From: Clostridia bacterium
Lineage (GTDB): Bacteria; Bacillota; Clostridia; UBA1212
Assembly (NCBI GenBank): GCA_017444825.1
Contig: JAFSVU010000020.1
Location: 4,374-68,373, forward strand
DNA: 64,000 nucleotides
Direction of reading: 5' to 3'
The position numbers were made by a program, and so were the translations under genes. The notes beneath the pieces are model-generated. The model searched no databases. It was not told the DNA's origin and was given only the letters and a program-made list of their open reading frames with translations. Positions within the stretch are counted from its first letter, which is position 1. Each line of letters starts with the position of its first letter. Below are positions 21,815-44,832 of this stretch, one piece after another.

Positions 21815-22128
21815 GAACAGTATGCTTGTTTCCCAATACCTCTTACTTCTTACCTCTTACTTCTTACCTCTTACCTTGTCCGGCACCGCTCTAACCCGAA
21901 GCGGCACCCCTTACGTCTCGCACCTTGCATCTCGTCACTTGGCTGCACTTCGTGCAGAATCGTTCCTCGATGAAATGTGGTCGACGTGGGCCCACTATTA
22001 CTTTTTACCTGTTACTTAGTCCGGCACCGCTTACGCAGTGACCTCTTACCTATTACCTCTTACCTCTTACCTCTTACTTATTACTTTGTCCGGCACCGCT
22101 CCAACCCAAAGCGGCACCCCTCAAACAG
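21815..22128. repeat. Structured intergenic repeat locus A (reverse orientation). TTACC(T/C)CT heptad runs plus GTCCGGCACCGC / AGCGGCACCCC boxes, two copies.
   Basis: ttacctcttacttcttacctcttacc..gtccggcaccgctctaacccgaagcggcacccc, and again at 22060-22125. Same modules as loci B-E. Confidence 0.8.
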
Positions 22129-22269
22129 TTTAGCTTTTTTTCAGCATTTATACTATAATACCATTGTAACCGCAAATCAGTCAGCGCCGGGAGTAAAAAC
22201 GCCTGCTCACGCAGACGTTAAGGCAGACAATTGAAAAGAAAGGAGCAACCCCGGCAGAGGAGGAATTCT

Positions 22270-22950
22270 ATGCAAATACTGTTGGTCGAGGACGAGCTCC
22301 GGCTCGCAAAAGCTCTCAAGCAGATACTTGAGGAGAATAAATACATTGTTGATACCGTAGCCAACGGCCTTGACGGCTACGAGTACGGGGTCAGCGGCAT
22401 CTATGACGTCATCGTGCTGGACGTTATGCTCCCTAAAATGGACGGAATGCAGGTGGCCAGAAAGCTTCGCGAGAACGGAGTCAGCACACCGATCATCATG
22501 CTCACCGCGAAGGACAGCATCAGGGACAAGATCAACGGCCTTGACAGCGGCGCGGACGACTACATGACAAAACCGTTTTCGCCGAACGAGTTATTGGCGA
22601 GGATCAGAGCTCTCACCCGGAGATATTCAGAGGTGCTGGCTGAAGTCACCGAATTTGGCGATTTTTCCTTCAACACCTCCGTCAACGAGATCTCACGCGG
22701 CGACAAGAGCATCAAGCTCAACTTCAAGGAGGCCGAGATACTGAAGCTGCTTCTTTCGAGGAAAAACGTGCCCGTTGCCAAGGAAGACATCATAACCAAG
22801 GTCTGGGGGCTGCAGTCCGAAGCCAGCGACTCGAACGTTGAGGCTTACATAAGCTTCGTGAGGAAGAAAATGGCCTTCATCGGCTCCGAAGTGACCATAG
22901 TTTCCTACAAGAAAAAAGGCTATATGCTGGAGAACGCCAATGCTAAATAA
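22270..22950 (+). CDS. OmpR-family response regulator
   Basis: MQILLVEDE... receiver domain plus winged-helix C-terminus. GGAGG RBS 5 nt upstream of ATG 22270. The track's upstream M at 22231 is rejected. Confidence 0.85.
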   Translation: MQILLVEDELRLAKALKQILEENKYIVDTVANGLDGYEYGVSGIYDVIVLDVMLPKMDGMQVARKLRENGVSTPIIMLTAKDSIRDKINGLDSGADDYMTKPFSPNELLARIRALTRRYSEVLAEVTEFGDFSFNTSVNEISRGDKSIKLNFKEAEILKLLLSRKNVPVAKEDIITKVWGLQSEASDSNVEAYISFVRKKMAFIGSEVTIVSYKKKGYMLENANAK

Positions 22951-24307
22951 GCTCAGGAACAAAATAGTACTGACCAATCTGATCTTCGTCGGGGTGCTTC
23001 TCATCGTGATCAGCGTCGTTTTGTGCGTCGCCATCGCCAATAACGAGCTCTTCAAAATGAACAAGCGCCTTGATCTGGCTGTCAGGTATGTTTCGGAGGC
23101 GCCGGAAGCGGATTTCATGAGAAGCTTCGGCTTTGAAACGAACAGGAATTCAGGCGTCTTCAACGGAGAAGACAGCGAAAGCGAAGACGGCGAAGACCCG
23201 GCTCCAAAAAGGCCCGACGGGACCAGGCCCCCTCTTCCTGACGGCGCAACAGATGTCATCATAGAAAACGGAGCGAGGCAGACCATTGACGGGGCCGCTT
23301 TTTCAGTGCTTCTTGATGCTGAAGGAAACATTCTGTCAAAGAAGCAGTTTTTTGCTTCAATGGATGATGAATCGCTTGCCTATGCCCTTGCCAAGGTTGA
23401 GTCGGCGGGAACGCTCCGCGGAACCGTTTCAGAGCTGGACCTTGCCTTTGCGAAAAAAAACACTGTTTTGGGCACCGCCGTAGCTTTTACCAGCAAGACG
23501 GAGGCCGATACGACCATCAGGAATTCTATCATCATTGCCGCAGGTCTTGATATCGTGATACTTGCTTTCGTGGCCCTCATCAGCTTCAGATTGGCGTCGC
23601 TCAGCGTCAAGCCGGTCAGAGAGGCCTGGGACAGTCAGAAGAGGTTCATTGCCGACGCGTCCCACGAGCTGAAAACACCGCTCACGGTTATACTTGCGAA
23701 CAACAGCATCCTGGAGCTCAGCGAAAAGGACCCGAATAACATGCAATGGCTCGAAAGCAACCGCTACGAGGCCGAAAGGATGCAGAAGCTCATCGAGGAG
23801 ATGCTTTTCCTGGCAAAGAACGACGAGGGAGGCTACAGACTTTTCCTTGGTGAAGCCGATATTTCCGATATCGCCGAGCAGACATGCCTCAGCTTTGAGC
23901 CGGTGGCGTTTGACCAGAGTGTTTTTATCGAGACCGCTATCGAGAAGGACGTCAGGATCACGACAGACTCGTCAATGGTGGAGAAGGTGCTCATTGTCCT
24001 CATCGACAATGCCGTGAAGCATTCCCCGGAAGGCGGCACAGTCACCCTTTCCCTTGAGAAGGATGCAAAGAACGTCAGATTGTCCGTTCACAACACGGGC
24101 GAGCCTATCGCCAAGGACGACCTCCCCCACATTTTCGAGCGGTTCTACAAGGCCGACACGTCAAGGGTCGCTGATTCCGCCAAAAGCGGATTCGGGCTGG
24201 GCCTTGCGATCGCCCATGACATAGTTGAGAAGCTGGGCGGCACCATCACCGCAAAGAGCAGTTCCGAAGAAGGCACCACGTTTACGGTGACTCTGAAAAA
24301 CCAATAA
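22940..24307 (+). CDS. Sensor histidine kinase (two TM, HAMP, HisKA, HATPase)
   Basis: 455 aa. H-box FIADASHELKTPL. G-boxes GFGLGLAIA and GGTI. Overlaps the RR stop. Confidence 0.85.
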   Translation: MLNKLRNKIVLTNLIFVGVLLIVISVVLCVAIANNELFKMNKRLDLAVRYVSEAPEADFMRSFGFETNRNSGVFNGEDSESEDGEDPAPKRPDGTRPPLPDGATDVIIENGARQTIDGAAFSVLLDAEGNILSKKQFFASMDDESLAYALAKVESAGTLRGTVSELDLAFAKKNTVLGTAVAFTSKTEADTTIRNSIIIAAGLDIVILAFVALISFRLASLSVKPVREAWDSQKRFIADASHELKTPLTVILANNSILELSEKDPNNMQWLESNRYEAERMQKLIEEMLFLAKNDEGGYRLFLGEADISDIAEQTCLSFEPVAFDQSVFIETAIEKDVRITTDSSMVEKVLIVLIDNAVKHSPEGGTVTLSLEKDAKNVRLSVHNTGEPIAKDDLPHIFERFYKADTSRVADSAKSGFGLGLAIAHDIVEKLGGTITAKSSSEEGTTFTVTLKNQ

Positions 24308-24452
24308 ACACTGCCGCGGCACGGTTTCAGGCTTGACCCGGGCTTGATTCTCCCGGGTCTCGGGCTTTACTCACGGCCGCCAAAGTGTTATTATTAGTAT
24401 ATCTATGCAGTCCGGCTGCATAAGTTCTTGTTTGAAAAGAAGCGCAGGTATT

Positions 24453-25844
24453 ATGAGATTCAAACCGTTCAAGGGTAATAACGTTGTAAGACTGGCAGCA
24501 TTCATCATTGCTTTCGCGGTGTTCTTCGGCGGCATTGTCGTCGTCCATTCAGAGGACTACAAAGGCGACATCAGCGACACGAAGGAGCAGATAGACGAGG
24601 CGAATAAAAAGCTTTCGGGCATTCAACAGCTTATAAAGGAAAGGCAGGACTCTCTGGACAGGATGGCAAGCGATATCCTTGCCCTGGAGGCTGAAAAGAT
24701 CAGCCAGATGACCGACAAGGAAGCCGCGATTTCCGAGCTCAAGGAACTCAAGAAGAGTATCGAGAACTTTGACGATGAGATCGCAGCCATGGAAGCCAAG
24801 CATGATGAGCTTGAGGCCCTCTTCCTTGACCGTTCGAGAGCGATGTACCAGTCATCCACAGACTTCGAGCTTCTTTCGGTATTGTTCCAGTCGACCAGCC
24901 TCTTTGATTTTCTCCGCAGGCTTGATATTCACCGCACGATGATCAAGGAGGACAGAGAGCTCATGGAGAGCGTCCGCGAAAGCGAAAGGCAGCTGGAAAA
25001 GAAGAAGGAACAGCAGAAGATCATCGCAGAGAACAAAGAGCAGGTGCTTGCGGACCTGGAACAGGCGATAGCGGAGCTTGAAAGCAACACAGACTTCGTT
25101 GCCGAAAACTATCTGAATCTCTCGGCAATGATCCAGGACCTTGAGGAAGAACAGAACGATTATTCCTCCGAAATAAATGCCCTGACCAAGAAGCTGAACG
25201 ACCTCGAAAAGAAGCAGCGCGAAGCCGAGGAAGCAGCAAGGAAGGCCGAAGAAGAGCGCAAACGCAAAGAAGAGGAAGCCAGAAAAGCTGCAGACGCGGA
25301 GAAGAAAAGGCTTGAAGAAGAAGCCAAAAGAGCTGCCGAAGAGGCGGAGAGGCTAAAACGCGAAGCCGAAGCTGCCGCAAGAGCCAAGGAAGAAGCCGAG
25401 CGGGAAGCGGGTGAGGCGATCCAGTCCCACAACAATCCCGCAGACTGGAACTTCTGCTGGCCCCTCGCAAACTACGTATGCTTCACCGGAAGATTCGGCT
25501 ACAGAGTCCACCCCATCACCGGCGCATGGCAGCTCCACGCGGGAGTTGACATTGCCGCGGCAGGAGGCACCAAGATATACGCCGCACAATCCGGCACGGT
25601 AAGCATGTCCAGGAACAACGGCGCATACGGTCTGACCGTCATAATCGACCACGGACAGGGCCTCCAGACCGTCTACGGACACTGCAGCAAACTCCTCGTC
25701 AGCGAAGGTCAGCACGTTGAAAGAGGCCAGACCATCGCCCTCGTGGGAATGACCGGCGGCGCCACCGGCAACCACCTCCACTTCGAGGTCCGCGAATGGA
25801 CAGTGCCGGTCGATCCGATGCCTTATATCGAAGGAAAGTATTGA
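24453..25844 (+). CDS. M23-family metallopeptidase with N-terminal TM and long coiled-coil (EnvC/PcsB-like)
   Basis: HAGVDIAAAGGTKIYAAQSGTV ... GNHLHFEVRE (LytM/M23). N-terminal Glu/Lys/Ala-rich coiled coil. Alternative upstream ATG at 24405. Confidence 0.75.
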   Translation: MRFKPFKGNNVVRLAAFIIAFAVFFGGIVVVHSEDYKGDISDTKEQIDEANKKLSGIQQLIKERQDSLDRMASDILALEAEKISQMTDKEAAISELKELKKSIENFDDEIAAMEAKHDELEALFLDRSRAMYQSSTDFELLSVLFQSTSLFDFLRRLDIHRTMIKEDRELMESVRESERQLEKKKEQQKIIAENKEQVLADLEQAIAELESNTDFVAENYLNLSAMIQDLEEEQNDYSSEINALTKKLNDLEKKQREAEEAARKAEEERKRKEEEARKAADAEKKRLEEEAKRAAEEAERLKREAEAAARAKEEAEREAGEAIQSHNNPADWNFCWPLANYVCFTGRFGYRVHPITGAWQLHAGVDIAAAGGTKIYAAQSGTVSMSRNNGAYGLTVIIDHGQGLQTVYGHCSKLLVSEGQHVERGQTIALVGMTGGATGNHLHFEVREWTVPVDPMPYIEGKY

Positions 25845-25847
25845 TTT

Positions 25848-25992
25848 AAGGGAGTGCCGCATTTAGTTAGAGGGAGTGCCGCCCAAGGTAATAAGTAAGA
25901 GGTAATAGGTAAGAAGTGACTGCGTGAGGGCGTGCCGCCTTAAGTAATAAGTAACTGCGAAAGAAGTGCCTTCTTAAGTAATAAGAAACAGA
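25848..25992. repeat. Structured intergenic repeat locus B
   Basis: GGGAGTGCCGCatttagTTAGAGGGAGTGCCGCCcaaGGTAATAAGTAAGAGGTAATAGGTAAGAAG then TGACTGCGTGAGGGCGTGCCGCC then TAAGTAATAAG...AAGAAGTGCC. Confidence 0.8.
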
Positions 25993-26094
25993 TAAAAAAG
26001 CAAGAAAATATAGGTGAAAAGGCGTCGGGGTTCAAAGAAGTCCCGGCGTCGTTTTTTATGGTGTTTTGGCATCCTTGCAGGTAAATATCCACTG

Positions 26095-26123
26095 TTGACA
26101 ATATAACGGTTTGCCGTTATAAT
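26095..26123 (+). promoter_or_regulatory. Promoter TTGACA-17-TATAAT for the XRE regulator gene
   Basis: ttgacaatataacggtttgccgttataat, followed by AGGTGA RBS and ATG 26146. Confidence 0.5.
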
Positions 26124-26145
26124 TGTTGGGAGGCAGGTGAATACC

Positions 26146-26715
26146 ATGAGTGTAAGCGAAATCATAAGTCAAAAACATTTATCCAAATACCGTGTTGCTA
26201 AGGACAGCAACATTCCGTATATGACACTTAATGACATTTGCAACGGCAAAGCTCGTCTCGATAAATGCAGTGCAGATACGGTATATAAACTTGCGAAAGT
26301 GCTTAACGTATCTATGGAGGAACTATTGGAACCGTATGTTTCGCCTCGTCCGTCTTTCGATCTGTTTAAAAGCAACGTATGTCACAGGCTCAAGGAACTT
26401 GGCGATATAGATTTCTTGATTGACACTATAGAAAGCGATGACATCACGAAGTATTATAAAAGATCATGGTACCCGGAAAGCCTTTATCTGCTGGCTATGG
26501 TGGACTACATAAGTCGAATCAACAATGTCCCGATCTGCGATGCCTACACCGATATCCGCAGAGCAAAGCTGAAAGATACTGTTTTTCCGTCAAGCGTCAT
26601 CGCCGCCTCAGCTGTAATGAGAGATGAAAGTATTCTGGAAAGAGCAAAGAAAGAATCGATTCCGGAATTCATGCGATTTAATATCGTAGAAAGCGATGTG
26701 AGAAATGTAGATTAA
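26146..26715 (+). CDS. XRE-family HTH transcriptional regulator with an uncharacterised C-terminal domain
   Basis: HTH segment LSKYRVAKDSNIPYMTLNDICNGKARLDKCSADTVYKLAKVLNVSMEEL. ATG 26146 preferred over GTG 26137. Confidence 0.6.
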   Translation: MSVSEIISQKHLSKYRVAKDSNIPYMTLNDICNGKARLDKCSADTVYKLAKVLNVSMEELLEPYVSPRPSFDLFKSNVCHRLKELGDIDFLIDTIESDDITKYYKRSWYPESLYLLAMVDYISRINNVPICDAYTDIRRAKLKDTVFPSSVIAASAVMRDESILERAKKESIPEFMRFNIVESDVRNVD

Positions 26716-26717
26716 AA

Positions 26718-26745
26718 AGGGGCCTTGAGGCCCCTGATCTATATC
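26718..26745 (+). terminator. Hairpin AGGGGCC-ttga-GGCCCCT after the regulator gene
   Basis: Perfect 7-bp stem. The downstream tract is not T-rich, so it is a weak intrinsic terminator. Confidence 0.35.
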
Positions 26746-26778
26746 TGTTCGAATACTTTGTAATGTCTGTGACTGTTA

Positions 26779-26952
26779 CCGGTCAGCTGAGTTTATTTCT
26801 GGCCACCTATTACCTTTTACCTTTTACTTATTACCTCTTAGCGGCACTCCCTTAAACCTTTACTTATTACCTGAGCGGCACTCCCTTAAACCTTTACTTA
26901 TTACTTTGTCCGGCACCGCTCTAACTAAGGGGGCACCCCTTCCGCAGGCACT
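26779..26952. repeat. Structured intergenic repeat locus C (reverse orientation)
   Basis: ttaccttttaccttttacttattacctcttaGCGGCACTCCCttaaacctttacttattacctgaGCGGCACTCCC...ttgtccggcaccgctctaactaagggggcacccc...ggcacttctt. Confidence 0.8.
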
Positions 26953-26954
26953 TC

Positions 26955-27515
26955 TTACTTGCCAAACAGCATCCCTTCCTCAAGCTTATCCGCCGCATTG
27001 CCAAGGCCCAAAGCCCGCAGGATCTCATAAGAAAAAGCCAAAGCCGTGCCGGGGCCTCTTGATGTGATGATATTGGCGTCGCGGACCACTCTGTCTTCAA
27101 CGTAGGACCCGCAGGATTCCATCTTTATCGAGCCCGGATACGAAGTTGCCTTGCGGCCGGAAAGCAGCCCTGCCCTCTCCAGAACGCAGGGAGCGGCACA
27201 TATTGCGCAAACAAGTTTGCCGTCGCTGAAAAAACGCTTGACGCACTCGATAACGCCGTCATTGTCTCTCAAGAGATGGGCATTGGGGAGGCCTCCCGGA
27301 AGAACTACCGCATCATAGCCTATGCCAGCCTTCTCCTTTTCGCCAAAGGGTTTGTCGGCTCTGACCCCGATGCCGTGGGAGCCGTTCATAATGTCATTTC
27401 CGGGCACCGAGCAAAGGGTTACCGAAACGTTCGCCCTTCTCAGCACGTCCACCACGGAAAGCGCCTCTATCTCTTCAAAACCTTCGCAGCAAAGGACCAA
27501 TACCGATCTGTTCAT
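26955..27515 (-). CDS. DJ-1/PfpI (ThiJ) family protein
   Basis: MNRSVLVLCCEGFEEIEALSVVDVLRR... with nucleophile elbow AICAAP. GGGAGG RBS before ATG 27515. The track's longer N-terminus is rejected. Confidence 0.8.
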   Translation of the reverse strand: MNRSVLVLCCEGFEEIEALSVVDVLRRANVSVTLCSVPGNDIMNGSHGIGVRADKPFGEKEKAGIGYDAVVLPGGLPNAHLLRDNDGVIECVKRFFSDGKLVCAICAAPCVLERAGLLSGRKATSYPGSIKMESCGSYVEDRVVRDANIITSRGPGTALAFSYEILRALGLGNAADKLEEGMLFGK

Positions 27516-27603
27516 AATATACCTCCCGAACACTTTGGTTTCATAAAATTTCAAAAAAGCCGCGGGATAGCCCGCGGCCTGATAAAGCTGTTAAACTGTC
27601 AGA

Positions 27604-29292: not shown

Positions 29293-29551
29293 TATATTTA
29301 CCGCCTTTACTTACAAATAATGATTTCACCGACCGGTTTTTTCGCGACGGAACGTCACGTATTTGAGCCGGGTCGCATAAAACGCAAATCATATTATACT
29401 ATCTTGATTAAAAGAATTCAACGGAAAAATTTTCCGCATTTAAGGCGGTCTTAAGGTGCCGGATCCGTGCGAAACCCGGCATTTTAAGGTTGAAGGCGGC
29501 GGCTCAAAAATGGTAAAATTTCATATCATAAGACACGGGGAGGATGTTCAT

Positions 29552-32053
29552 ATGCAAAATCCTTTTACAAAAGCGATACCCCTGGTTTCAGGCGAGCCCG
29601 GCGACCTGTCCGTCGTGAACGTTTACACGGATTTCTTTGAAGAGTTCACAGCGGATGCCCCTCGGGAGGAAACCAATGTCATTCTCAAGATCAATGCCGA
29701 CAGCGAGTTTGCGGTATGGATAAACGGCAGATTTGCCCTGACCGGCCAGCATTCCCAGTTTCCCGACACCCCCTGCGCTGAGTTTGCCGACATCACGGAA
29801 CTCATCCGGGAAGGCGCCAATACCATTGCCGTGACGGTATACCGCCAGGGTCTCACCACTTCCACCTACATAAGCGGCCCCGGCCAGTTTCTCTACGAGA
29901 TCGCCCTCCTCTCTCCGGACGGCGAAGAAGTTATCGCCGCATCCTCCGAAAACACTCTCAGACGGTTTTCACCGTCGTACAAAAGCGGGCCCGTGCCCCA
30001 GGTCTCCGGACAGCTTGGTTTTTCTTTTGCATACACTCATTCACCGGGCTGTGACGATTTTCTCGGGGCAAGCTACACCGAAGAGGTTGCCAGAGAGGAC
30101 GGTTTTACGAATGCCGTCGTTCTCCGGGATTTTGAGCCTGCGGATTTCACGACGAGGAACATCAAAAACCTTGGTATCTTAAGCGCCGGGACCTCCGAGC
30201 TGGTCGCCCAGGGACTTTTCGACTACGGGCTTGAGTACCGTGAGACCAATTCCATGCCCCACGGCAGCTATATGCAAAACGCCGCGCTCCGCTCAAGATA
30301 CCTTCATCAGCTTCTTGACGACCCCGTGACGACAAGGGAGATACCCGCGGTACAAAACTACGCTCTCGAGCCCTCCGCAGAGCTTCCCGAAGTCAAAAAC
30401 CCGATCAGACTTGTAACAAAAGAGCTCACCCTCACAGGCGCTCTCCGGGAGGGCCGGGGCATATACGCGGTGATAGACATTGGTGCCGAGACCCTTGGTT
30501 ATTTATCCTTCAGAGTCACTACGAAGCGTCCCACGGTCATTGGCGTGGCCTATTCAGACCACCTGATCGACCTCAGGGCCAGGAGCTACGTCGGAGGCAG
30601 GCATTTTGCGGAAACAGTCATCGTTCCTGCGGGGGAGACGGCCCACACCCACCTTCTCAGCAAGATCGGTGCGAGATATATCATGCTCTACGCGGAAACG
30701 GACGACATCACCATCTCCGGAGTCGGGATCATTCCCACAGTCTATCCGGTGGACGGGTACGCCCGGGGCGATTTTGCGGTCAACGACGACCTGCATAAAA
30801 AGATCTATTCCACCTGCCTCAGCACACTTCTTCTTTGCATGAACGAGCACTACATGGATTGCCCCCAGCGTGAGCAGGCACTCTATGCGATGGACAGCAG
30901 AAACCAGATGCTCTGCGGCTACTACGCTTTTGGCGAGTATGCATACGCCAAGGAAAGTCTGTCGCTCCTGTCGAGATCTCTCAGGCCAGACGGCCTCCTG
31001 GAGCTCTGTGCGCCGGCAAAGGTTCCGATCACTATTCCGTCATTTTCACTTCACTGGGTCATCGCCCTCTGCGAGTACACGAAATTCAGCGGCGACACAG
31101 CCTTCTTCTACGAACAGCTTAAGACCGCAAACACCATAATGAGTTCGATCCTCACCTGCCGCGGCGAAAACGGAGCCCTTCTCCGGCGCACCGAGAAGGA
31201 ATACTGGAACTTCCATGAGTGGAACGGCGAGCTTTCGGGTTCCATCGGCAGTCCATCCACCTCCGACGCGGACGGCTGCCTAACGGCACTGTTCATAATC
31301 GCAACTGATAAACTTGCCGAGATCATCGAGGAAACAGGTGGCGAGGACGAAAGCGCCGCTTCTCAGGTCAGAAAGCTCCGGGCCCTCTCGACGTCGATGC
31401 GCGCGGTGTTCAACGACACTTTCTTCGACCCGGAAAACGAGGTCTACTGTTCCTACAAAGACATGTCGGCCGAAACCAATGGGCTCCGCAACCACAGCGA
31501 GTACATGAACGCATTGGCAATACTCTCGGGAGCTGCCTCCCTTGACGAGAACTGCCTTGCAGCCGCAGTAAAAGCGATCACCCGCAAGGCCGAAAAGGTC
31601 GAGATAAGCCCCTGCACTCTCAGCACCTGCCTCTTCAAGTACGATGCGCTGATGTCGGTTTCGAGAGAATATATCGACTTCGTGATGGAGGAGATAACCG
31701 AGCTCTGGGGCTACATGATAAGCCGAGGAGCCACGTCTTTCTGGGAGACTATCAAAGGGGCCGAGGACTTTGACGATGCAGGCTCTCTTTGCCACGGCTG
31801 GGCCGCGATCCCGGTGGCGGTGTATTACAGATACATTCTGGGAATTGAGCCCTTAAAGTGCGGCTTCGAGAAATATTCGGTGAGCCCCGCATTCTGGGAC
31901 AGACATCACGCAAAGGGCAGTATCTTCCTGCCGGCAAAGTCGATGAAGCTGGAGGTCACGGTGGACGACAAGTCGTTTTTCTTTGACGAAAAAGTGCCTG
32001 CGGAAGGGAGTGCCGCCTTAAGTTATAGGGGTGCCGCCCAAGGTAATAGGTAA
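29552..32053 (+). CDS. Six-hairpin glycosidase, GH78 alpha-L-rhamnosidase-like
   Basis: MDCPQREQALYAMD and C-terminal CHGWAAIPV resemble GH78 signatures. GGGGAGGA RBS 8 nt before ATG 29552. An extended -10 TGgTAAAAT at 29510-29518 argues against the 29510 and 29456 starts. The C-terminus runs into repeat locus D. Confidence 0.55.
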   Translation: MQNPFTKAIPLVSGEPGDLSVVNVYTDFFEEFTADAPREETNVILKINADSEFAVWINGRFALTGQHSQFPDTPCAEFADITELIREGANTIAVTVYRQGLTTSTYISGPGQFLYEIALLSPDGEEVIAASSENTLRRFSPSYKSGPVPQVSGQLGFSFAYTHSPGCDDFLGASYTEEVAREDGFTNAVVLRDFEPADFTTRNIKNLGILSAGTSELVAQGLFDYGLEYRETNSMPHGSYMQNAALRSRYLHQLLDDPVTTREIPAVQNYALEPSAELPEVKNPIRLVTKELTLTGALREGRGIYAVIDIGAETLGYLSFRVTTKRPTVIGVAYSDHLIDLRARSYVGGRHFAETVIVPAGETAHTHLLSKIGARYIMLYAETDDITISGVGIIPTVYPVDGYARGDFAVNDDLHKKIYSTCLSTLLLCMNEHYMDCPQREQALYAMDSRNQMLCGYYAFGEYAYAKESLSLLSRSLRPDGLLELCAPAKVPITIPSFSLHWVIALCEYTKFSGDTAFFYEQLKTANTIMSSILTCRGENGALLRRTEKEYWNFHEWNGELSGSIGSPSTSDADGCLTALFIIATDKLAEIIEETGGEDESAASQVRKLRALSTSMRAVFNDTFFDPENEVYCSYKDMSAETNGLRNHSEYMNALAILSGAASLDENCLAAAVKAITRKAEKVEISPCTLSTCLFKYDALMSVSREYIDFVMEEITELWGYMISRGATSFWETIKGAEDFDDAGSLCHGWAAIPVAVYYRYILGIEPLKCGFEKYSVSPAFWDRHHAKGSIFLPAKSMKLEVTVDDKSFFFDEKVPAEGSAALSYRGAAQGNR

Positions 32054-32135
32054 TAGGTAAAAGGTAAGAAGTTATAGGGAAAAAATGACTGCGTGAGCGG
32101 TGCCGGACAAGGTAATAAGTAAAAGGTAACAGGTA
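32004..32135. repeat. Structured intergenic repeat locus D
   Basis: GGGAGTGCCGCcttaagTTATAGGGGTGCCGCCcaaGGTAATAGGTAATAGGTAAAAGGTAAGAAG...ATGACTGCGTGAGCGGTGCCGGACaaGGTAATAAGTAAAAGGTAACAGGTAAAAGG. Confidence 0.8.
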
Positions 32136-32193
32136 AAAGGTGCGGGCGCATTCGGATGGATGATCCGGGCGCCCGCTTTAAGCAGATACGTTT

Positions 32194-36163: not shown

Positions 36164-37378
36164 TTATCTTTTGTTCGTTTTTTTCACCTTGGAACTCATC
36201 TGAGCCGTTCTCTTCTCCGCAGCACCGTCGTCTCCCGGCGGCAGCTGTGTCTCCAGATAATTGACCAGCATAAAACCAATGCTTATCCTCACTCCGTCCT
36301 CAAACCTGGTACAGTCAAGGCCCGTGAGCTTGTTGAATTTTTCAATGCGGTAGTTAAGAGTGTTTCTGTGGACGAAAAGCGCCTTGGCGGTCTCCGTGAC
36401 GTTCTGGTTGAGCTTCAGATACATCTTGATGGTAAGAAGCAGCTCGTCATCGCTCTCGGAACGGTTCTCACTGTCCTGCACTCTCAGGCAGTTTTCAAAA
36501 AATGTGTTTCCGAACACCTCTCTCAGGTAGCTCTCGCACACGTCCCTCTTCTGACCGTAAAGGATCCTGGCGACGCCAAGGTTATCGTAGGAATAAACGA
36601 CGCTGTCAATATCAAACGCCTCTCCTATCGCCAATGCCCTCTCCGCCGTTTTGTACGCCGCGTCAATGTTCCGGAGCAGCTTTACCCTGCAGCCCACCGA
36701 GACGTTTATGTCGATGGCAAGCTCGGTCCTCACGGTGTCGATAACGGACTCCGCCGCCTCAAGAGCATTTTCAAACTGCATGTCCTCCGAAAGAGGCACG
36801 ATGACCGCGCAGGCGTCCGATCTTATTCTCACGGTGACGAAACCGTCGCTCTCCGGGAAAGCGTATTCAAGAAGAGAAGTCACCTCGGTCATCCGGTCAA
36901 CTTCTCTGTCGTCCTGCTTTTTCTTTCTGGCGAGGGTCACAAGGAGCGCGGTGTATTCCTGGGCAGGCACGTTTTTCTTAGTGTTTACCGTAAAATCGCC
37001 CTGTGTCACCGAGTCCTTTCCTCCCAGCAGCAGCTGACGGAAAAACTCATTTCTTCTGGAAAAGCTGGCGGTGACGTTTTCGGTATAGAACAAAGATGCT
37101 ATCTTCAGTGCCTTCGCAGCACCGTCCTTTGCGTCCTGTCCGCCCTCCGGAACGTCGCAGAAAAACCAGAGTTCCCTGCCCTCGCAGGTTATCTGGCAGA
37201 ACATCCTGCCGCCGGAAGTCACGATGTCGCCGTCCTCGTCCGGCAGTTCGTAAGTTTCTTCCGAAACAGGGTACAGCACCCGGCCCGAGCTGTCGCAAAC
37301 GCCGAAGCCCCGGCCCATCGTCTCCGCTATTTTTTCGATAAAACCAATGTCATCGATCTTGCCCGGTTCAATACTCAT
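36164..37378 (-). CDS. PucR/CdaR-family transcriptional regulator
   Basis: C-terminal HTH TAKALFVHRNTLNYRIEKFNKLTGLD is typical of the PucR C-terminal domain. Confidence 0.65.
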   Translation of the reverse strand: MSIEPGKIDDIGFIEKIAETMGRGFGVCDSSGRVLYPVSEETYELPDEDGDIVTSGGRMFCQITCEGRELWFFCDVPEGGQDAKDGAAKALKIASLFYTENVTASFSRRNEFFRQLLLGGKDSVTQGDFTVNTKKNVPAQEYTALLVTLARKKKQDDREVDRMTEVTSLLEYAFPESDGFVTVRIRSDACAVIVPLSEDMQFENALEAAESVIDTVRTELAIDINVSVGCRVKLLRNIDAAYKTAERALAIGEAFDIDSVVYSYDNLGVARILYGQKRDVCESYLREVFGNTFFENCLRVQDSENRSESDDELLLTIKMYLKLNQNVTETAKALFVHRNTLNYRIEKFNKLTGLDCTRFEDGVRISIGFMLVNYLETQLPPGDDGAAEKRTAQMSSKVKKTNKR

Positions 37379-39225: not shown

Positions 39226-39887
39226 TCCGCGGTCTCCGGCTCGTAACCGTAGCATACGAAGTCATATATACTGCAGTAGGGATAGTCGCTGAATTCCTCA
39301 TCCTCCGGGAAATCCACCGTTATCATGATCTTTGTGGCGAAGGTGTCCTTCGGGAACGTGCTCTCATCCAGCAGCATAGTGGGCTTTGTGTAAACGTCGT
39401 AGAACTCGTAGACCTCTTTCCATTCGCTGCCGTCCTCGGTCACAAGTATCTTGTAGTAACCGGTCAAAGTCTCCCAGGTGATGGAAAAGTCGCTGAGTTC
39501 ATATCGTCCCCCGAGATCGATGGTGATCTCATGGTGAAGATCTGTTCTCCAGTTCGGTCTCTGCAGGTCAAATCCGCTCCACCTCGTGGTCTCGTCCTCA
39601 TCCACTATAGCTTTCGGATCTCCGTATTCGCCGCGCTGTGAGTAGTCCGCTTCCACTTCTTTATCGTAGACGACGTTCATAATTTTCCTTGAGGGCGTCG
39701 GTTCGGCCGTAGGCTCGGACGTGAGCTCCGGTGTGGCTTCGGGAGCCTGCGTTTCTTCGACAGGATCTGCCTCGGCAGTAGCTTCGGCAGTGGCCTCTGA
39801 GGGAGTGTTGTTACCGGGGGTTCCGGCGCATGCCGCCAGACAAACCAATGCAATCAAAACCGCAACCGTCACGAAAAATTTCTTCAT
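39222..39887 (-). CDS. Lipoprotein with F5/8 type C (discoidin/CBM32-like) carbohydrate-binding domain
   Basis: MKKFFVTVAVLIALVCLAACAG lipobox. Pro/Glu/Thr/Ala linker. DETTRWSG... discoidin-like core. Confidence 0.55.
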   Translation of the reverse strand: MKKFFVTVAVLIALVCLAACAGTPGNNTPSEATAEATAEADPVEETQAPEATPELTSEPTAEPTPSRKIMNVVYDKEVEADYSQRGEYGDPKAIVDEDETTRWSGFDLQRPNWRTDLHHEITIDLGGRYELSDFSITWETLTGYYKILVTEDGSEWKEVYEFYDVYTKPTMLLDESTFPKDTFATKIMITVDFPEDEEFSDYPYCSIYDFVCYGYEPETAE

Positions 39888-39904
39888 TAAGATTTCCTCT
39901 TTCC

Positions 39905-39960
39905 TGTTGTTTCAGTATGTAATTTGCACATATCCTTTTTTTGTGCAATCTGCACATATT
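39905..39960. promoter_or_regulatory. Operator-like inverted repeat TTGCACA-N15-TGTGCAA-tc-TGCACA in the divergent promoter region
   Basis: gtaatTTGCACAtatcctttttttGTGCAAtcTGCACAtattc. It lies between the lipoprotein start (39887, minus) and the DUF4091 gene (40066, plus). Confidence 0.3.
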
Positions 39961-40065
39961 CTACAGCTTGACCTCCCTTTTTTCAAGTATAATCATTGCG
40001 CCGAAGAGCCTTATCTGTTAAAATAAAAAACAATTCAAATACACTTCTCCGAAGGAGACCAGGTC

Positions 40066-41709
40066 ATGTTTTACAGAATCGTTTCTTCTCTCGACAAATG
40101 CTTTCCGGATATGAAAGCCGGGGATTTCAAGGAGCTCACCTCCTTTTCGATGCTTCGGAACGAGCGGTATTCTTTTCAGCTCTGTTACGACTCGGAGCCC
40201 GGCACAAATCTTGCATCCGCTCCCACGGAGATATTCATAGAATCACCCTTAAGCGAATACATAAAGCTTTACAAAGTGCGGTGCGTCCCTTCGGAGCACC
40301 CCGTTTCCGCCGGTTTCTACGACGAAAACTACGAGCGCATTAAACCGGGCCTCTTTCCGGACGTGCTGGAACCGATGTCTCCCGGCGAGCGGATCTTAAA
40401 GAGCGACTCTCTCAACGCCATCTGGTTTGAAGTCGACCCCTGCGGCAAAGCCGCGCCGGGAACGTACCCGATCACGGTAAAGCTTCTTTCCCCCGGAAAG
40501 GAAGAGCGGGTCTCCGTAAGCTGTGAGATCATTGGCGCATCTCTTCCGGATACGGATTTTATTTTCACCCAGTGGTTCCACGTGGACTGCCTGAAGGATT
40601 ATTACCTCACCGGGGACTACGACGACAGGCTATGGAAGATCATTGGCGATTTTGCCGCAAACGCAGCGAGATACGGCCAGAATATGATCCTCACGCCGGT
40701 CCTCTCGCCCGAGCTTGACACGTTTCCGTCCATTTACAGGACCAACGTGCAGCTGGCAAAAATAAAGGCGGATAACGGGGTCTACAGCTTCGATTTTTCA
40801 CGCCTCGGGAAGTGGATCGCCCTTTGCGAAGAAAAAGGTATCAAATATTTTGAGATCAACCACCTCTTCTCCCAGTGGGGCGCCGCGAAATGTCCTCAGG
40901 TCTGGGCTGTCAAAGACGGGGTGTATCAGAGAATCTTCGGCTGGGAAAACGATGCGGACAGCGAGGAGTACATTGGTTTTTTGAAGCAGTTCCTGCCTGC
41001 CCTCGTAAGATACCTTAAGAGAAAAAAGGTGCTTGACAGGTGCTTTTTCCACATATCCGACGAGCCGAATATCACCATGCTTGAGCACTACGGTAGGCTC
41101 GCATCCGTCGTAAAGCCTCTTCTCTCCGGAAGACCCGTGATGGACGCCCTGTCCGATTACGATTTTTACGAGAAGGGTATCTGCGACATTCCGATACCGT
41201 CGAACGATCACATTGGTCCGTTTATCGAGCACAAGGTGCCGGGCCTTTGGACGTATTACTGCTGCGGTCAGTGGAAGGACGTTTCCAACAGGTATTTTTC
41301 TATGCCCTCCGCCAGAAACCGTGCCATTGGCGTCCAGTTCTGGAAGTTCAACATCAAGGGATTTTTGCAGTGGGGGTATAACTTCTACAATTCCTTCCTT
41401 TCGTTTACAAAGATCAATCCGTTCCTCACCACAGACGGCGACGGCTTCGTGCCCTCGGGAGATACCTGTTCCGTGTACCCGGGCCGTGAGGAGACTCCCC
41501 TCCCTTCCCTCCGCGAAGTTGTGTTTTTCGACGCTCTTCAGGACATGAGGGCCCTATACCTGCTGGAGAGCTTCATCGGGAAAGACGCCGCGCTGGCCAT
41601 TGTGGAGAACGGTATCGAGCCCGTCTTATTCAACAGATTCCCGTATAGCAGAGATTTCGTTCTGGGCCTTAGAGAAAGGATCAACGCCGAAATCAAAAAA
41701 CATATTTGA
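40066..41709 (+). CDS. DUF4091-like putative glycoside hydrolase (GH123-like, DE catalytic pair in HISDEP)
   Basis: 547 aa, no signal peptide. FHISDEPN contains an Asp-Glu pair like the GH123/GH20 retaining hexosaminidase catalytic dyad. Assignment from memory of family signatures. Confidence 0.5.
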   Translation: MFYRIVSSLDKCFPDMKAGDFKELTSFSMLRNERYSFQLCYDSEPGTNLASAPTEIFIESPLSEYIKLYKVRCVPSEHPVSAGFYDENYERIKPGLFPDVLEPMSPGERILKSDSLNAIWFEVDPCGKAAPGTYPITVKLLSPGKEERVSVSCEIIGASLPDTDFIFTQWFHVDCLKDYYLTGDYDDRLWKIIGDFAANAARYGQNMILTPVLSPELDTFPSIYRTNVQLAKIKADNGVYSFDFSRLGKWIALCEEKGIKYFEINHLFSQWGAAKCPQVWAVKDGVYQRIFGWENDADSEEYIGFLKQFLPALVRYLKRKKVLDRCFFHISDEPNITMLEHYGRLASVVKPLLSGRPVMDALSDYDFYEKGICDIPIPSNDHIGPFIEHKVPGLWTYYCCGQWKDVSNRYFSMPSARNRAIGVQFWKFNIKGFLQWGYNFYNSFLSFTKINPFLTTDGDGFVPSGDTCSVYPGREETPLPSLREVVFFDALQDMRALYLLESFIGKDAALAIVENGIEPVLFNRFPYSRDFVLGLRERINAEIKKHI

Positions 41710-41722
41710 AGGAGATAAACCA

Positions 41723-43579
41723 ATGTCACCGTTCCAGTTTAAAACCGACGATCTGTCAGTATCATACGACCCCGAGACCCTTTCTCTGACCGCCGCCTCC
41801 GGCGGAGAGACCTGGAGGACCAAACCGGGCTCCGAAACTTATATCGTATCCCGAAAATTCGGGAACATTCCCTTCGCCTCCGCAAAATGCGAAGCCTCAG
41901 CTTACAAAACAGGCACCGTTTCGGGGGTAAAGGCGGTCTACACCTTCGAGGAGAGCGGCATCACGGCCGTCACCTACGTATTTGCCGAAGGATATGACGA
42001 CACACTCCACTGCGAATTTTTCCTGAAGGGAGACATTTCCTCCGACGTAAGGGCCGTCTACTGGCCTGCGCCCCTTGAGTTTAACGCGGACGACGGCTGC
42101 ACCGTACTTCCCAAGATGCAGGGAGTCCTTCTTCCCGCAAAGTGGGACGGGAAGGTTCCGAACTTTCAGAACTGGCAGATGCTGTCGAGAGATTTTTACA
42201 TGCCATTTGCCGGCCAGGTCAGAAACGGCTCCGGCTGCATGATGATATTTGAGACACCCTGGGACGCAAACTGCTTCGTGGACCACATCCCCGGAGGCGA
42301 CACCACACTGGTTCCCTACTGGAGACCGTCTCTCGGCCACTACTCGGCGCATGACAAGAGAAAGCTCAGCTACCGCTTCCCGAAAAATGCCGATTACAAT
42401 CTTTTTGCGAAAATTTACAGAAAATACGTGTGCGAGCACGGCGATTTTGTAACGCTCCGCCAGAAGGCAGAAACCAATCCCAACGTATCCTACATGACGG
42501 GTACGCCGGTCTACATTGACGGCATATGCACCATGATACACCCGGACTCGGAAGCCTACGACAAGGCCCACCCCGAAAGAAACACCCACGTGTGCAGGTT
42601 CGAGACCGTTGGCGAAAGGCTCGACATGCTGAAAAAGGAAGGCTTTGAGAAGATCTACCTCCATCTGGACGGATGGGGAAAGATGGGCTACGACAGGCTC
42701 CACCCGGACGTATTCCCGCCCTGCCCCGAGGCCGGCGGCGCTGAAGGCATGAAGGACCTTAGCGACAGGTGCAGAGAGCTGGGCTACAGGTTCGGTATCC
42801 ACGACCAGTTCAGGGATTACTATTTCGAGGCGGAGACGTTTGACATGGACAACGTGGCGGTGGACGAGGCCGGCGGCTATGAGTGCTACAACGTGTGGTG
42901 CGGCGGTCCCCAGACCTTTATGTGCCCCGAGCTCAGTCCCCAGTACGTCCGCAGGAACTACGCCACCTTCGACAGCCTCGGCATAGGCATCGACGGCACG
43001 TACCTTGACGTGTTCTCGGTGGTAGATCTTGACGAGTGCTTTAACGAGAAACATACGGTGACAAGAAAAGACTGTGTAAAATACCGCAGAGAGTGCTATG
43101 ATTTTCTGAACAAAAAAGGTATAATCACATCTTCGGAGGAGGCTGTTGACGCAGTTCTTCCCTCGTTTGTGCTCTGCCACCACGCGCCCTTCGCCGTTGA
43201 CGAGCTTTCGTCCTCCACCGGCAAGGCTGTGGGCATTCCGATACCGCTGTTCACGTTGGTTTATCACGAGTGTTTGATCGTGCCCTGGTTCGGCATCGAT
43301 AAAAAAGGCGGCTGGCACATTCCGATCACGGACAGCGGCTACCTCTACGCACTTCTTACGGGCGGCACAGTTTACGTATGGCCGGGCATGACGAAGGAGG
43401 AGCGCAGACGGGCGGATATCGCATTGGCGCTTCAGGCCGAGGTCTGGGACAAGGAGCTTGTCTCCCATGAGTTTATTGACGGAAACCCCCGCAGACAGCG
43501 TTCGACGTTCGCGGGCGGCACTACAGTTACAGTTGATTTTGAAACGGAGGAATTTAGTATAAGCCATGCTTCCAATTGA
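41723..43579 (+). CDS. Cytoplasmic glycoside-hydrolase-like protein, paralog of the 909-aa membrane protein (uncharacterised family)
   Basis: GGAG RBS then ATG 41723 (MSPFQFKTDD...). Motifs LHLDGWGKMGYD, GGAEGMKDL and PLFTLVYHE are shared with CDS 4740-7469. Confidence 0.55.
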   Translation: MSPFQFKTDDLSVSYDPETLSLTAASGGETWRTKPGSETYIVSRKFGNIPFASAKCEASAYKTGTVSGVKAVYTFEESGITAVTYVFAEGYDDTLHCEFFLKGDISSDVRAVYWPAPLEFNADDGCTVLPKMQGVLLPAKWDGKVPNFQNWQMLSRDFYMPFAGQVRNGSGCMMIFETPWDANCFVDHIPGGDTTLVPYWRPSLGHYSAHDKRKLSYRFPKNADYNLFAKIYRKYVCEHGDFVTLRQKAETNPNVSYMTGTPVYIDGICTMIHPDSEAYDKAHPERNTHVCRFETVGERLDMLKKEGFEKIYLHLDGWGKMGYDRLHPDVFPPCPEAGGAEGMKDLSDRCRELGYRFGIHDQFRDYYFEAETFDMDNVAVDEAGGYECYNVWCGGPQTFMCPELSPQYVRRNYATFDSLGIGIDGTYLDVFSVVDLDECFNEKHTVTRKDCVKYRRECYDFLNKKGIITSSEEAVDAVLPSFVLCHHAPFAVDELSSSTGKAVGIPIPLFTLVYHECLIVPWFGIDKKGGWHIPITDSGYLYALLTGGTVYVWPGMTKEERRRADIALALQAEVWDKELVSHEFIDGNPRRQRSTFAGGTTVTVDFETEEFSISHASN

Positions 43580-44693
43580 TGTTATTAAAGGATTTTACAC
43601 TGATATCGAAAACTACGACGCCCTTGATATAACCAAAATCGAGAGCGGCCACATTAACAGGACCTACGAGGTCAAGGACAGGACACTTGCGGGCACGTAC
43701 CGGGGCCACTACATTTTTCAGCGCATCAACACGTCCATCTTCAAGAACCCTGTGGGGCTCATGAACAATATCATGCTGGTGACGGAGCATGCCGCAGCCA
43801 GCGCAATTGCCGCGGGAAAGGATCCGAAGGTATCGACGCTCACGCTCATGAAGTCGGTGCAGGACAAGGTATATTACGTCGACAGCGAGGGGTATTATTG
43901 GCGCTGCTATCTGTTCCTTCCCAATTCCATCAACCTTGACGTGGTGGAGGTCACGCCGGGAACTTACGTTCAGGCCGGCGGCGCATTGGCGGATTTTCAG
44001 AGAATGCTGGCGGATTTCGACGCGTCTCTCCTCTGCGAAGTCATTCCGGGCTTCCACGACACGAGAAACAGGTTCAAAAATCTCAAGAAGGCCATCGAAG
44101 AGAACAGGTCGGGCCGGGCTGCAAACGCCAAGGCGGAGATCGAATATGCCCTTTCCCTTGAAGGTATCACAGGCACTATAGTCGACCGCCTGCGGGACGG
44201 CAGGCTGCCTCTCCGCGTGACCCACAACGACACCAAGCTCAGCAACATCATGATCGACAATGACACCCACGAAGTAATGTGCCTGATCGATCTCGACACT
44301 GTCATGCCGGGCAGCGCCCTTTACGATTTCGGCGACGCTCTCAGGGCTGGGGGCTCCTCTGCAGCGGAGGACGAGGCTGATCTCTCCAAGGTCAACTTCC
44401 TCGAACTCAACTTCGAGAAATATTGCGAGGGCTACATCGGCGGCGCCAAGGACTTCCTCACGGACGAGGAGCTGAGCCTGCTTCCGGAGTCTGCGGCCAT
44501 ACTCACATATGAGTGCGGCATCAGGTTCCTGTCGGATTACCTTGACGGCGACACATATTTCTCCACAAAGTACCCTGAGCACAATCTGGTGAGGGCCAGA
44601 AACCAGTTTAAGCTGGTGAAGGACGTGCTGGGGAATCTGGAGAGGCTGCACGGGATCGTTGAAAAGGTAATGGTTAAAGGAGTGCCGCACTAA
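43566..44693 (+). CDS. nahK: N-acetylhexosamine 1-kinase (NahK/LnpB-like, APH-fold)
   Basis: PLRVTHNDTKLSNIMID, IDLDTVMPGSALYDFGD and YFSTKYPEHNLVRARNQFKLV closely match my recollection of Bifidobacterium NahK. Overlaps the upstream gene by 14 nt. Confidence 0.7.
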   Translation: MLPIDVIKGFYTDIENYDALDITKIESGHINRTYEVKDRTLAGTYRGHYIFQRINTSIFKNPVGLMNNIMLVTEHAAASAIAAGKDPKVSTLTLMKSVQDKVYYVDSEGYYWRCYLFLPNSINLDVVEVTPGTYVQAGGALADFQRMLADFDASLLCEVIPGFHDTRNRFKNLKKAIEENRSGRAANAKAEIEYALSLEGITGTIVDRLRDGRLPLRVTHNDTKLSNIMIDNDTHEVMCLIDLDTVMPGSALYDFGDALRAGGSSAAEDEADLSKVNFLELNFEKYCEGYIGGAKDFLTDEELSLLPESAAILTYECGIRFLSDYLDGDTYFSTKYPEHNLVRARNQFKLVKDVLGNLERLHGIVEKVMVKGVPH

Positions 44694-44832
44694 GTTAAAG
44701 CGGTGCCGGACAAAGTAATAAGTAATAGGTAAAAGGTAAGAAGTAATAGCTTTAGGGAGTGCCGCTCAGGTAATAAGTAATAGGTAATAGGTAAAAGGTA
44801 ATAGGTAAAATTCAGTAAATATAGGTAAAAAG
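44684..44832. repeat. Structured intergenic repeat locus E
   Basis: GGAGTGCCGCactaagTTAAAGCGGTGCCGGACaaaGTAATAAGTAATAGGTAAAAGGTAAGAAG...GGGAGTGCCGCTCAGGTAATAAGTAATAGGTAATAGGTAAAAGGTAATAGGTAAAA. Confidence 0.8.

Follow-up and report, generated by a model that had tools for sequence, protein, structure and literature searches.

In many bacteria, no class of long microsatellite is commoner than the heptanucleotide repeats, for which an origin by slippage has been proposed (Mrazek 2007, as summarized in PMC4679880 and PMC4692102). Described examples include the cyanobacterial STRR, the GGGAATC/GGGGAYT repeats of Xanthomonas and Nostoc, and the TAACTGA heptamers of marine Beggiatoaceae, cyanobacteria, and Bacteroidetes. 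Species-specific intergenic repeats, such as the BIMEs/REP of enterobacteria and the pneumococcal BOX, are also common, and the existence of another family is unsurprising by itself. Here, we describe a repeat family in a 64,000-nt stretch of DNA (the window; contig JAFSVU010000020.1, positions 4,374 to 68,373, forward strand) from an uncultured ruminant-gut (rumen) Clostridia species, in which a heptanucleotide microsatellite is fused with conserved box modules and tied to stop codons and the sense strand. The family is apparently undescribed, and its heptad part falls within an established class, the heptanucleotide microsatellites.

A sequence-only reading of the window had named five loci with a common modular architecture. 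All five were found: A (21830–22128, minus strand), B (25845–25992, plus strand), C (26800–26954, minus strand), D (31992–32139, or to 32176 with its terminator-like module, plus strand), and E (44663–44837, plus strand). The interpretation as a modular intergenic repeat family is supported, as the pattern counts lie far above chance and the modules recur in shuffled order. The di-heptad RGTAANRRGTAA matched 36 times in the window, in comparison with 0.18 expected from 100 dinucleotide-preserving shuffles (largest shuffle count, 2), and all 36 matches fell inside the five loci. The combination of a GTGCCG box and two heptads, GTGCCG-N3-6-RGTAANARGTAA, matched 12 times, with 0.00 expected. Tandem Repeats Finder reported period 7/14/21 arrays at every one of the five loci, showing head-to-tail 7-nt units beyond chance, as in other long simple sequence repeats (SSRs). 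A repeat search tied the loci together through direct or inverted copies with 75–97% identity, and an nhmmer profile of the double-box unit described below found no further copy in the window. The distribution is uneven: four of the five loci lie within 10.3 kb, and neither the remaining ~43 kb of the window nor a further 10 kb to its left contains an element. The heptads had been said to stand out in a GC-rich genome; the window is in fact about 52% G+C, dropping to ~41% past the tRNA-His at 55.9 kb. Three further loci (F, G, and H) were detected on L085, a separate 73.5-kb scaffold probably of the same species, bringing the total to eight loci in ~88 kb of same-species DNA (the window plus ~24 kb), a sample biased towards element-bearing loci.

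The elements are mosaics of 61–456 nt, built from GTGCCG boxes, runs of ARGTAAN heptads, an 80-nt hairpin module, and a terminator-like module. We oriented them with the heptads reading GGTAA; all boxes and heptads of a locus then point one way. The commonest unit is a double box, in which (T/G)TT(G/A)AGGG(A/G)GTGCCGC is followed by a conserved linker ending in AGTTAGAG, by (C/G)GGTGCCG(G/C)(A/C)CAA, and then by one to six heptads. The further modules are TGACTGCGTGAG with a single box, AAGTGCCTGCGGAAGGG, GGTTTAAGGGAGTGCCGCTCA, the 80-nt central module, and the terminator-like hairpin. The box TGACTGCGTGAG had been listed as common to the loci; it is exact at two loci, B and D, and A contains a variant. 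Over 77 internal heptads the consensus is R-G-T-A-A-N-A, with A or G equally at position 1, although positions 1–5 were set by the search rule and only positions 6 (T39/G17/A16/C5) and 7 (A in 76 of the 77) are informative. The commonest heptad is GGTAATA/AGTAATA, representing the 39 of 77 with T at position 6. These AT-rich microsatellites account for about half of each element, and the arrays are not pure repeat, as boxes, linkers, the 80-nt module, and the terminator-like module interrupt the heptads.

The elements have no defined unit length, and their lengths at the same site differ between strains. No terminal inverted repeats were found at the elements, and within the loci the only internal inverted repeats of at least 9 nt were weak 15–19-nt matches at 73–74%. 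Exact tracts common to different loci span only 13–30 nt; longer ones occur between the neighbors F and G (66 nt) and in the central module (42 nt). The sense strand is 61–70% purine, with a G/C ratio of 2.1–3.1, and has TAA in all three frames every 21 nt. Sense strands carry 2–13 stop codons per frame, with a longest open run of 15–46 codons, in comparison with 0–4 stop codons and 41–73 codons for the antisense strands.

All loci except A, seven of the eight, start at a stop codon or within ~17 codons upstream of it. At B, C, F, G, and H, as well as at locus D of a second strain type (strain 2), the element includes the stop codon of the upstream gene or begins 0–3 nt past it, while the genes at D and E of the window read 17 and ~10 codons into the element. 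The proteins end within one or two residues of the position at which their repeat-free relatives end. The DJ-1, strain-2 GH78, and second melibiase genes terminate in the TAA of an ARGTAA heptad core, and in pepF and dtd the stop codon coincides with the first bases of the element. The M23 peptidase gene has TGA in the window, TAG in strain 2, and TAA in L002. Elements had been proposed to supply the last codons of upstream open reading frames (ORFs), which holds for the GH78 and NahK-like (APH family) genes, but not for the M23 peptidase, whose ORF ends at its native position and whose stop codon is immediately followed by locus B.

At all seven informative loci, the heptads read in the sense direction of the abutted gene (one-sided binomial, 0.008). 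The reported occurrence in both orientations is correct along the chromosome, whereas relative to the gene whose stop is abutted the orientation is always the same. Five loci lie at the 3′ ends of convergent genes, E and H lie between tandem genes, and A is divergent; the genes flanking the elements have unrelated functions. On the terminator side, B, C, and G leave a non-repeat spacer of 30–75 nt, while D and F lead directly into the terminator-like module, and terminators or terminator-like modules follow B, C, D, F, and G. E and H, the only two loci that reach a start codon, end at the ribosome-binding site and ATG of the next gene.

Same-species contigs were recovered through exact matches to the response regulator, DJ-1, PfkB, and DUF6106 proteins of the window. 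The M23 peptidase has one relative at 98%, and the next matches (≤65%) are in metagenome-assembled genomes (MAGs) labelled Clostridia. The same-species contigs, including the 98% M23 contig, derive from at least 13 ruminant-gut samples, and independent assemblies reproduce the elements; one same-species scaffold is 100% identical to the window over 20.7 kb. Among 185,579 species representatives, which do not include the source species, the strict unit pattern matched only the 4.9-kb contig L001, binned in a goat-rumen MAG labelled Desulfovibrionaceae and judged to be mis-binned. Contigs from two of these samples, one of them the source of the window scaffold, carry a pepF gene with 100% identity to that of L001, and pepF of L085 likewise matches copies from such samples at 100%. 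The tetranucleotide signature of L085 is compatible with that of the window (r = 0.91), but fails to separate it from relatives. L001 and L085 probably belong to the same species as the window because of their co-occurrence, composition, and shared repeats, all of which are circumstantial.

The comparison with related genomes suggested by the sequence-only reading showed repeat-free orthologous sites in relatives and polymorphic elements in close strains. In the relatives (62–65% M23 and 83–84% pepF protein identity), the same gene pairs are 18–134 nt apart, and at 62–85% amino acid identity no heptads and no profile match were observed at the orthologous sites. The relatives also lack the helix-turn-helix (HTH) gene located between B and C and the PF05635 gene located between F and G.

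Strain type 2 (L037 and L039–L043) is 98.3–99.0% identical to the window in flanking DNA over the 20 kb compared. All indel and rearrangement breakpoints in this interval fall in A, B/C, or D, so that no structural difference seen between the two strain types lies outside the elements; the effects include altered stop codons, a protein tail 15 residues longer, and an inverted gene segment. The heptad runs of locus A number 6/3/5 in the window, as against 4/5/4 in strain 2, where the module order is also different and two central modules are present. Such copy-number polymorphism between close strains is typical of long SSRs. Locus D of strain 2 has four heptads only, and its GH78 protein is 15 residues shorter; the two versions differ by ~95 nt of inserted modules joined at AAGTGCCTG, changing the GH78 tail. 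The B–C segment is inverted in strain 2 (L037, 13575–14542), as represented by a reverse-strand high-scoring segment pair of 972 nt with 96.9% identity, and the breakpoints lie inside the inverted repeat loci B and C. Several short contigs (Logan, ENA) stop inside elements, as expected of multi-copy repeats. Short-read assemblies of this abundant uncultured rumen organism are broken at the elements, which matters for MAG quality and strain tracking.

At two sites, foreign low-GC genes lie between inverted element copies. One is the B–C segment (25886–26857), consisting of a terminator, a promoter (26095–26123), a low-GC (0.41) XRE-type HTH gene (26146–26715), and a second terminator. The other is the low-GC (0.42) PF05635 gene between F and G (L085, 4597–4983), which encodes a 23S rRNA intervening-sequence/Avd-like four-helix-bundle protein; it stands at a convergent gene pair flanked by inverted repeat loci and is absent in the relatives at 83–84% identity. 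Shared cassette boundaries of the HTH and IVP (PF05635) inserts were considered and rejected, as the flank matches span only 8–12 nt and are chance-level.

Locus A lies between the divergent melibiase (minus strand) and response-regulator (plus strand) genes and is the sole locus not behind a stop codon. Reading along the minus strand, it contains a double box (22088–22119), six heptads (22044–22085), a CACTGCGTAAG box (22030–22041) with a single box, three heptads (21996–22016), the central module, another double box (21878–21909), and five heptads (21841–21875). The 80-nt central module (21914–21993, minus strand; GGGCCCACGTCGACC...GTGCGAGACG) is predicted to form a 21-bp imperfect hairpin with the predicted core CTGCAC-GAA-GTGCAG at 21943–21957 on the same strand. 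It is also found in locus F on L085 and L001, and the copies are 92–97% identical. A small peptide encoded by the central module was rejected, since the 34-codon sense ORF is interrupted by a stop codon in the L001 copy. A 65-aa antisense ORF of locus A, searched against a protein database for miscalled ORFs on other copies, had no matches.

Locus B begins 1 nt past the TGA that ends the M23 peptidase gene (25842–25844). Its double box (25852–25884) is followed by four heptads (25887–25914), TGACTGCGTGAG (25917–25928), a single box with two heptads to 25955, and a AAGAAGTGCC box. The terminator scan detected an intrinsic terminator hairpin downstream of B (12 bp plus a T-run; 26021–26050, plus strand) and another downstream of C (26718–26735, minus strand); the latter is probably bidirectional, because the HTH gene ends there too. 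Locus C directly follows the DJ-1/PfpI stop codon (TAA, 26955–26957, in an AAGTAAG heptad-like context) and comprises a AAGTGCCTGCGGAAGGG box (26937–26953), a double box (26908–26938), two GGTTTAAGGGAGTGCCGC units, and heptads (26808–26835).

Locus D covers the last 17 codons of the GH78-like gene, the stop codon of which (TAA, 32051–32053) is inside a heptad run. It consists of AAGTGCCTGCGGAAGGG (31992–32008), a double box (32008–32039), heptads (32042–32069), TGACTGCGTGAG (32086–32097), a single box, and heptads (32111–32138). The terminator-like hairpin module (32140–32176, plus strand; GTGCGGGCGC...GCGCCCGC) is joined directly to the final heptad. The hairpin GUGCGGGCGC...GCGCCCGC folds, and is followed by TTTTTT in the F copy and by the tail CTTTAAGC in the D copy. 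The D module was not flagged by the terminator scan because its T-run is weak. A similar hairpin (~85% alike by eye) ends locus F, and therefore the terminator-like module appears to be part of the family. The final ~10 codons of the NahK-like APH-family gene (stop TAA, 44691–44693) lie within locus E, which is of the intercistronic type. Its double box (44680–44711) and heptad runs (44714–44748, 44769–44810, and 44824–44837) extend as far as the ribosome-binding site (AGGTGGG) and start codon (ATG, 44846) of a PfkB kinase gene, and the locus is identical in an independent sample (L050). On L085, F follows pepF, G follows the second melibiase gene, and H lies between dtd and a metallo-beta-lactamase-fold gene.

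The sequence-only reading had found no described family to which the repeats could be assigned, and our searches of Rfam, of phage, plasmid, and viral collections, and of the literature agree. At the gathering threshold, Rfam matched only the tRNA-His in the window; in E-value mode, locus A had only chance-level matches (E 1.9 and 4.7). On L085, Rfam matched nothing at the elements. Literature searches with box and heptad strings returned nothing relevant. A first metagenome scan gave no matches, and a looser second scan gave 29 contigs with zero family members, most of them being unrelated heptad arrays. We rejected L023, L032, and L036 as members: they carry a ~75-nt tandem satellite with GTGCCGGCAAGTAACAAGTAAC beside long (AC)n tracts and are probably eukaryotic (in L032, the satellite extends over about 5900–7260 on the reverse strand). 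Viral contigs contained no members, and their two-heptad matches were attributable to chance. The plasmid and phage collections yielded a single match, an (AAGTAAT)n microsatellite on a plasmid of Providencia (P. alcalifaciens NZ_OU659119, ~94.4 kb; L096, 1130–1290), in which (GTGAATTTC)5 precedes ~16 perfect AAGTAAT heptads. The array occupies unannotated DNA roughly 700 nt past repA and does not follow a stop codon; the same heptad thus occurs on an unrelated replicon.

How such elements arise and persist may be explained in several ways. We consider it an even call that they form a lineage-specific, non-coding, non-autonomous mosaic family residing in the gap from the stop codon to the terminator or the next ribosome-binding site. 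We likewise see about equal reason to accept and to doubt that they are selfish or neutral mosaic repeats, growing by slippage and recombination and tolerated through their sense-frame stops. In this mechanism, heptad runs would lengthen and shorten by replication slippage, like other heptanucleotide microsatellites. Recombination or gene conversion at short shared tracts (typically 13–30 nt identical) would rearrange the boxes and modules, both inside a locus and from one locus to another, and no enzyme would be encoded in cis. An element could land on or replace a stop codon with the protein still ending within ~17 codons, while the nearly stop-free antisense strand would add 40–70 residues. 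We infer that the elements take their position and orientation at stop codons because the sense strand has TAA in all three frames. Any effect at the RNA level would be secondary, such as moving the terminator away from the terminating ribosome or placing an SD-like (Shine-Dalgarno-like) GAGGU before the next gene. The consequences are apparent in the spacers (~20–130 nt in relatives versus 140–1110 nt in the host species), replaced stop codons, altered C-terminal tails, inversion of DNA between inverted copies, and broken metagenome assemblies.

Several observations weigh against the selfish or neutral reading. Selection for stop codons explains the orientation, but not why all five 3′ untranslated region (UTR)-type loci start 0–2 codons from, or upstream of, the native stop; where B, C, and G retain a native-looking spacer, it is confined to the terminator side, and locus A is not behind a stop codon at all. 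No pair of empty and filled sites was found within the species, and transfer of the box-plus-heptad unit to a new locus is only inferred. The same placement, abutting stop codons and restricted to the sense strand, is seen for unrelated RGTAANA arrays in other phyla and hints at a function or a targeting mechanism. The substitutions in the central hairpin and the sense-only G–U box hairpin fit an RNA role, neither being statistically convincing.

The alternative that best survives, which we hold to be possible rather than probable, is that the elements are selected cis-acting RNA elements of 3′ UTRs and intercistronic gaps, in which unpaired purine-rich (ARGUAAN)n and GUGCC box hairpins act after the stop codon. 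The RNA might be a platform for post-termination ribosomes or 30S subunits (GAGGU/AGGU pairing with the anti-SD) or for an RNA-binding protein, a backstop for read-through or frameshifted translation, or a spacer relieving the ribosomal suppression of a terminator hairpin. The uniform sense orientation of the seven informative loci (the same binomial value of 0.008), with starts at or just before the stop codon, is consistent with this view, as are the ends of E and H exactly at the ribosome-binding site and start codon of the next gene and the placement of at least 10 unrelated RGTAANA arrays at sense-ORF stops, with none antisense. In addition, E. coli terminators only a few bp past a stop codon are repressed, and their efficiency increases with distance (PMC4824070), a repression near stop codons that would favor a spacer role.

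The structural evidence is divided. Heptad regions are predicted to be unstructured, and the folds of whole elements (z −0.7 to −0.8) are no better than those of shuffled sequences. The central module folds at −26.1 kcal/mol (z −1.84). In its hairpin, 95% of the cells are paired over four distinct copies, with one compensatory and three G–U-preserving changes that favor selection on the RNA, but 135 of 500 shuffles were as good. The box pair GGUGCCGC/GCGGUGCC pairs in 89.7% of the cells, but only via two G–U pairs and without covariation, and its stability is uneven (z −2.5 to +0.3). The GGUGCC hairpin is self-complementary only as sense RNA through these G–U pairs, the antisense strand having A–C mismatches; this specificity for RNA supports the selected-RNA view, whereas the lack of covariation and the uneven z values oppose it. 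Further arguments against it are the extreme variation at 98–99% strain identity, with whole modules present or absent and lengths of 61–456 nt, the absence of the elements from all relatives, and the functionally unrelated flanking genes. The commonest heptad, with T at position 6, pairs poorly with the anti-SD, and the conservation among copies may just reflect youth. SD mimicry as a general property was rejected, as GAGGU arises only from heptads with G at position 6, where T is commonest.

The looser metagenome pattern caught unrelated RGTAANA arrays on soil, termite-gut, and rumen contigs of 0.37–0.65 G+C. At least 10 of these (contig GC 0.42–0.65) begin within ~10 nt of a same-strand stop codon closing an ORF of 107–935 codons, or overlap the ORF end, and none of the unrelated arrays examined abuts a long ORF in antisense orientation. 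Several of the contigs hold two or three arrays, and one locus from an unrelated soil organism varies from 3 to 6 GGTAAGA units across samples. The GTGCCG in these matches is incidental coding sequence, and therefore they represent a small, arbitrary sample of a larger class. A broader version of the selected-RNA proposal, which we regard as rather unlikely, is that ARGUAAN arrays are a widespread selected post-stop-codon RNA signal in several phyla, and that the rumen family represents a lineage that coupled this signal to GUGCC box hairpins and amplified it. If true, such a signal would explain the sense-strand starts at stop codons in the unrelated soil, termite-gut, and rumen arrays together with those of seven of the eight loci here. 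Separately, on three high-GC contigs (L021, 583–608 versus 1046–1071 on the reverse strand; L022; and L034), RGTAANA arrays of convergent genes face each other across ~25–100 nt. The facing arrays form long inverted repeats that could act as hairpins, in a geometry like that of B/C and F/G.

We consider it improbable that the elements are non-autonomous REP/PATE-like transposable elements, moved in trans by an IS200/IS605-family Y1 transposase or a RAYT encoded elsewhere. The GTGCC box pair would then serve as the subterminal hairpin and the heptad GTAA (reverse complement TTAC) as the target or cleavage site; IS608 inserts 3′ of TTAC. The spread to at least eight loci in one lineage, with absence in relatives, fits this proposal, as do the G+C-rich imperfect palindrome of the box pair and the extragenic location 3′ of genes, as in REP/BIME. 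However, the genes seen in the ~88 kb of same-species DNA include no Y1_Tnp, RAYT, TnpB, other transposase, or integrase. The elements are without fixed ends, fixed length, or terminal inverted repeats, their units are direct rather than inverted doublets, and the antisense-strand box hairpin contains A–C mismatches.

Still less credence can be given to the antisense strand, (NUUACYU)n, acting as a C-rich, G-poor Rho-loading site that stops antisense or convergent read-through before the 3′ end of the gene. Its C/G ratio of 2.1–3.1 and predicted lack of structure would suit Rho, and the five convergent 3′-end loci are oriented such that an incoming antisense transcript carries the pyrimidine strand; however, the tandem loci E and H and the divergent locus A are left unexplained, and the convergent genes are already separated by intrinsic terminators. 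Finally, a local segmental duplication or chance low-complexity sequence confined to the region, suggested by the clustering of four window loci in 10.3 kb beside otherwise empty DNA, is hardly credible, given counts far above chance, unrelated flanking genes, reproduction of the elements by independent assemblies from at least 13 samples, and the three loci beside pepF, the second melibiase gene, and dtd on another scaffold; the last point speaks against the confinement to one region that the sequence-only reading had named as a refuting outcome.

Other features were observed outside the elements. The tRNA-His (55932–56008) is followed by a 32-nt inverted repeat with 94% identity (55996–56027/56031–56062) that takes in the 3′ end of the tRNA, and a direct copy of ACTAGCCACCCCA lies at about 56219–56231; these resemble att-site remnants at an island edge. 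The low-GC (~0.41) island that follows (56000–64000) is free of heptad elements and encodes a TetR regulator, a Phd/YefM antitoxin, a Fic/Doc and RelB pair, an AAA_21 (AbiEii-like) ATPase, and a DUF6273 protein. It also carries a separate 44-nt hairpin repeat, ATAAAGGGGCCCCCGAAAGTGCTTGCACTTTTGGGGAGAAGGAG, at 56085–56128, 56354–56397, and 59106–59149, whose copies are 61–91% alike, all end in an SD-like GGAG, and have no Rfam match. Two direct copies of a 110-nt sequence, 95% identical, precede the AAA_21 gene (60379–60488) and the DUF6273 gene (62273–62382) and may represent a duplicated promoter or leader. In the region ~5–6 kb left of the window start, seen in other contigs, Rfam gathering matches (L079, 16171–16473 and 17010–17067) comprised fragments of Group II intron domains 1–4 just past the lysS terminator and a pemK RNA motif nearby.

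The stop-codon-to-terminator gap is suggested here as a niche for heptamers, which makes the question of their abundance in bacterial intergenic DNA more testable. Among known systems, the heptanucleotide SSRs of cyanobacteria, Xanthomonas, and Nostoc (PMC4692102) are likewise intergenic tandem 7-nt units that vary between close strains, sometimes form inverted pairs between convergent genes, and are presumed to be driven by slippage. In the present family, by contrast, the heptad runs alternate with conserved, non-repetitive G+C-rich boxes, with an 80-nt hairpin and a terminator-like module as further parts, and the A-rich ARGTAAN unit, with which no G-quadruplex is possible, is tied to stop codons and the sense strand. 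The TAACTGA repeats (MacGregor 2015, PMC4679880) are alike in having forward stops and an open reverse strand, a predicted unstructured RNA, and an intergenic location near coding-sequence boundaries with 2–6 copies per set; by the same argument, their forward repeats could overlap gene ends only briefly. They differ in unit (R-G-T-A-A-N-A here) and host (Firmicutes/Clostridia here), and the TAACTGA sets are without box modules. Moreover, they lie mostly just upstream of start codons, whereas seven of the eight loci here are at a stop codon and only E and H also reach a start.

Beyond the microsatellites, the BIMEs/REP (REPIN) of enterobacteria and pseudomonads are also extragenic mosaics of short G+C-rich imperfect palindromes at gene 3′ ends and in operon gaps, and are species-specific, rearrangement-causing, and non-coding. 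Their REP units, however, are inverted doublets linked to a RAYT gene, whereas the units here are direct, the ~88 kb holds no such gene, the palindromy is weak and present only in RNA through G–U pairs, and AT-rich heptads make up about half of the element. Pneumococcal BOX (boxA-boxB(n)-boxC), RUP, ERIC, and the Correia miniature inverted-repeat transposable elements (MITEs) resemble the family in being modular with a variable number of internal modules, intergenic, multi-copy, and lineage-restricted, and co-transcription with neighbors would be a further likeness to BOX and MITEs. Terminal inverted repeats and a defined length are features of MITEs, and neither was found here. The BOX modules of Streptococcus pneumoniae (45–59 nt) are not microsatellites, and their comparison with our family concerns the modular logic.

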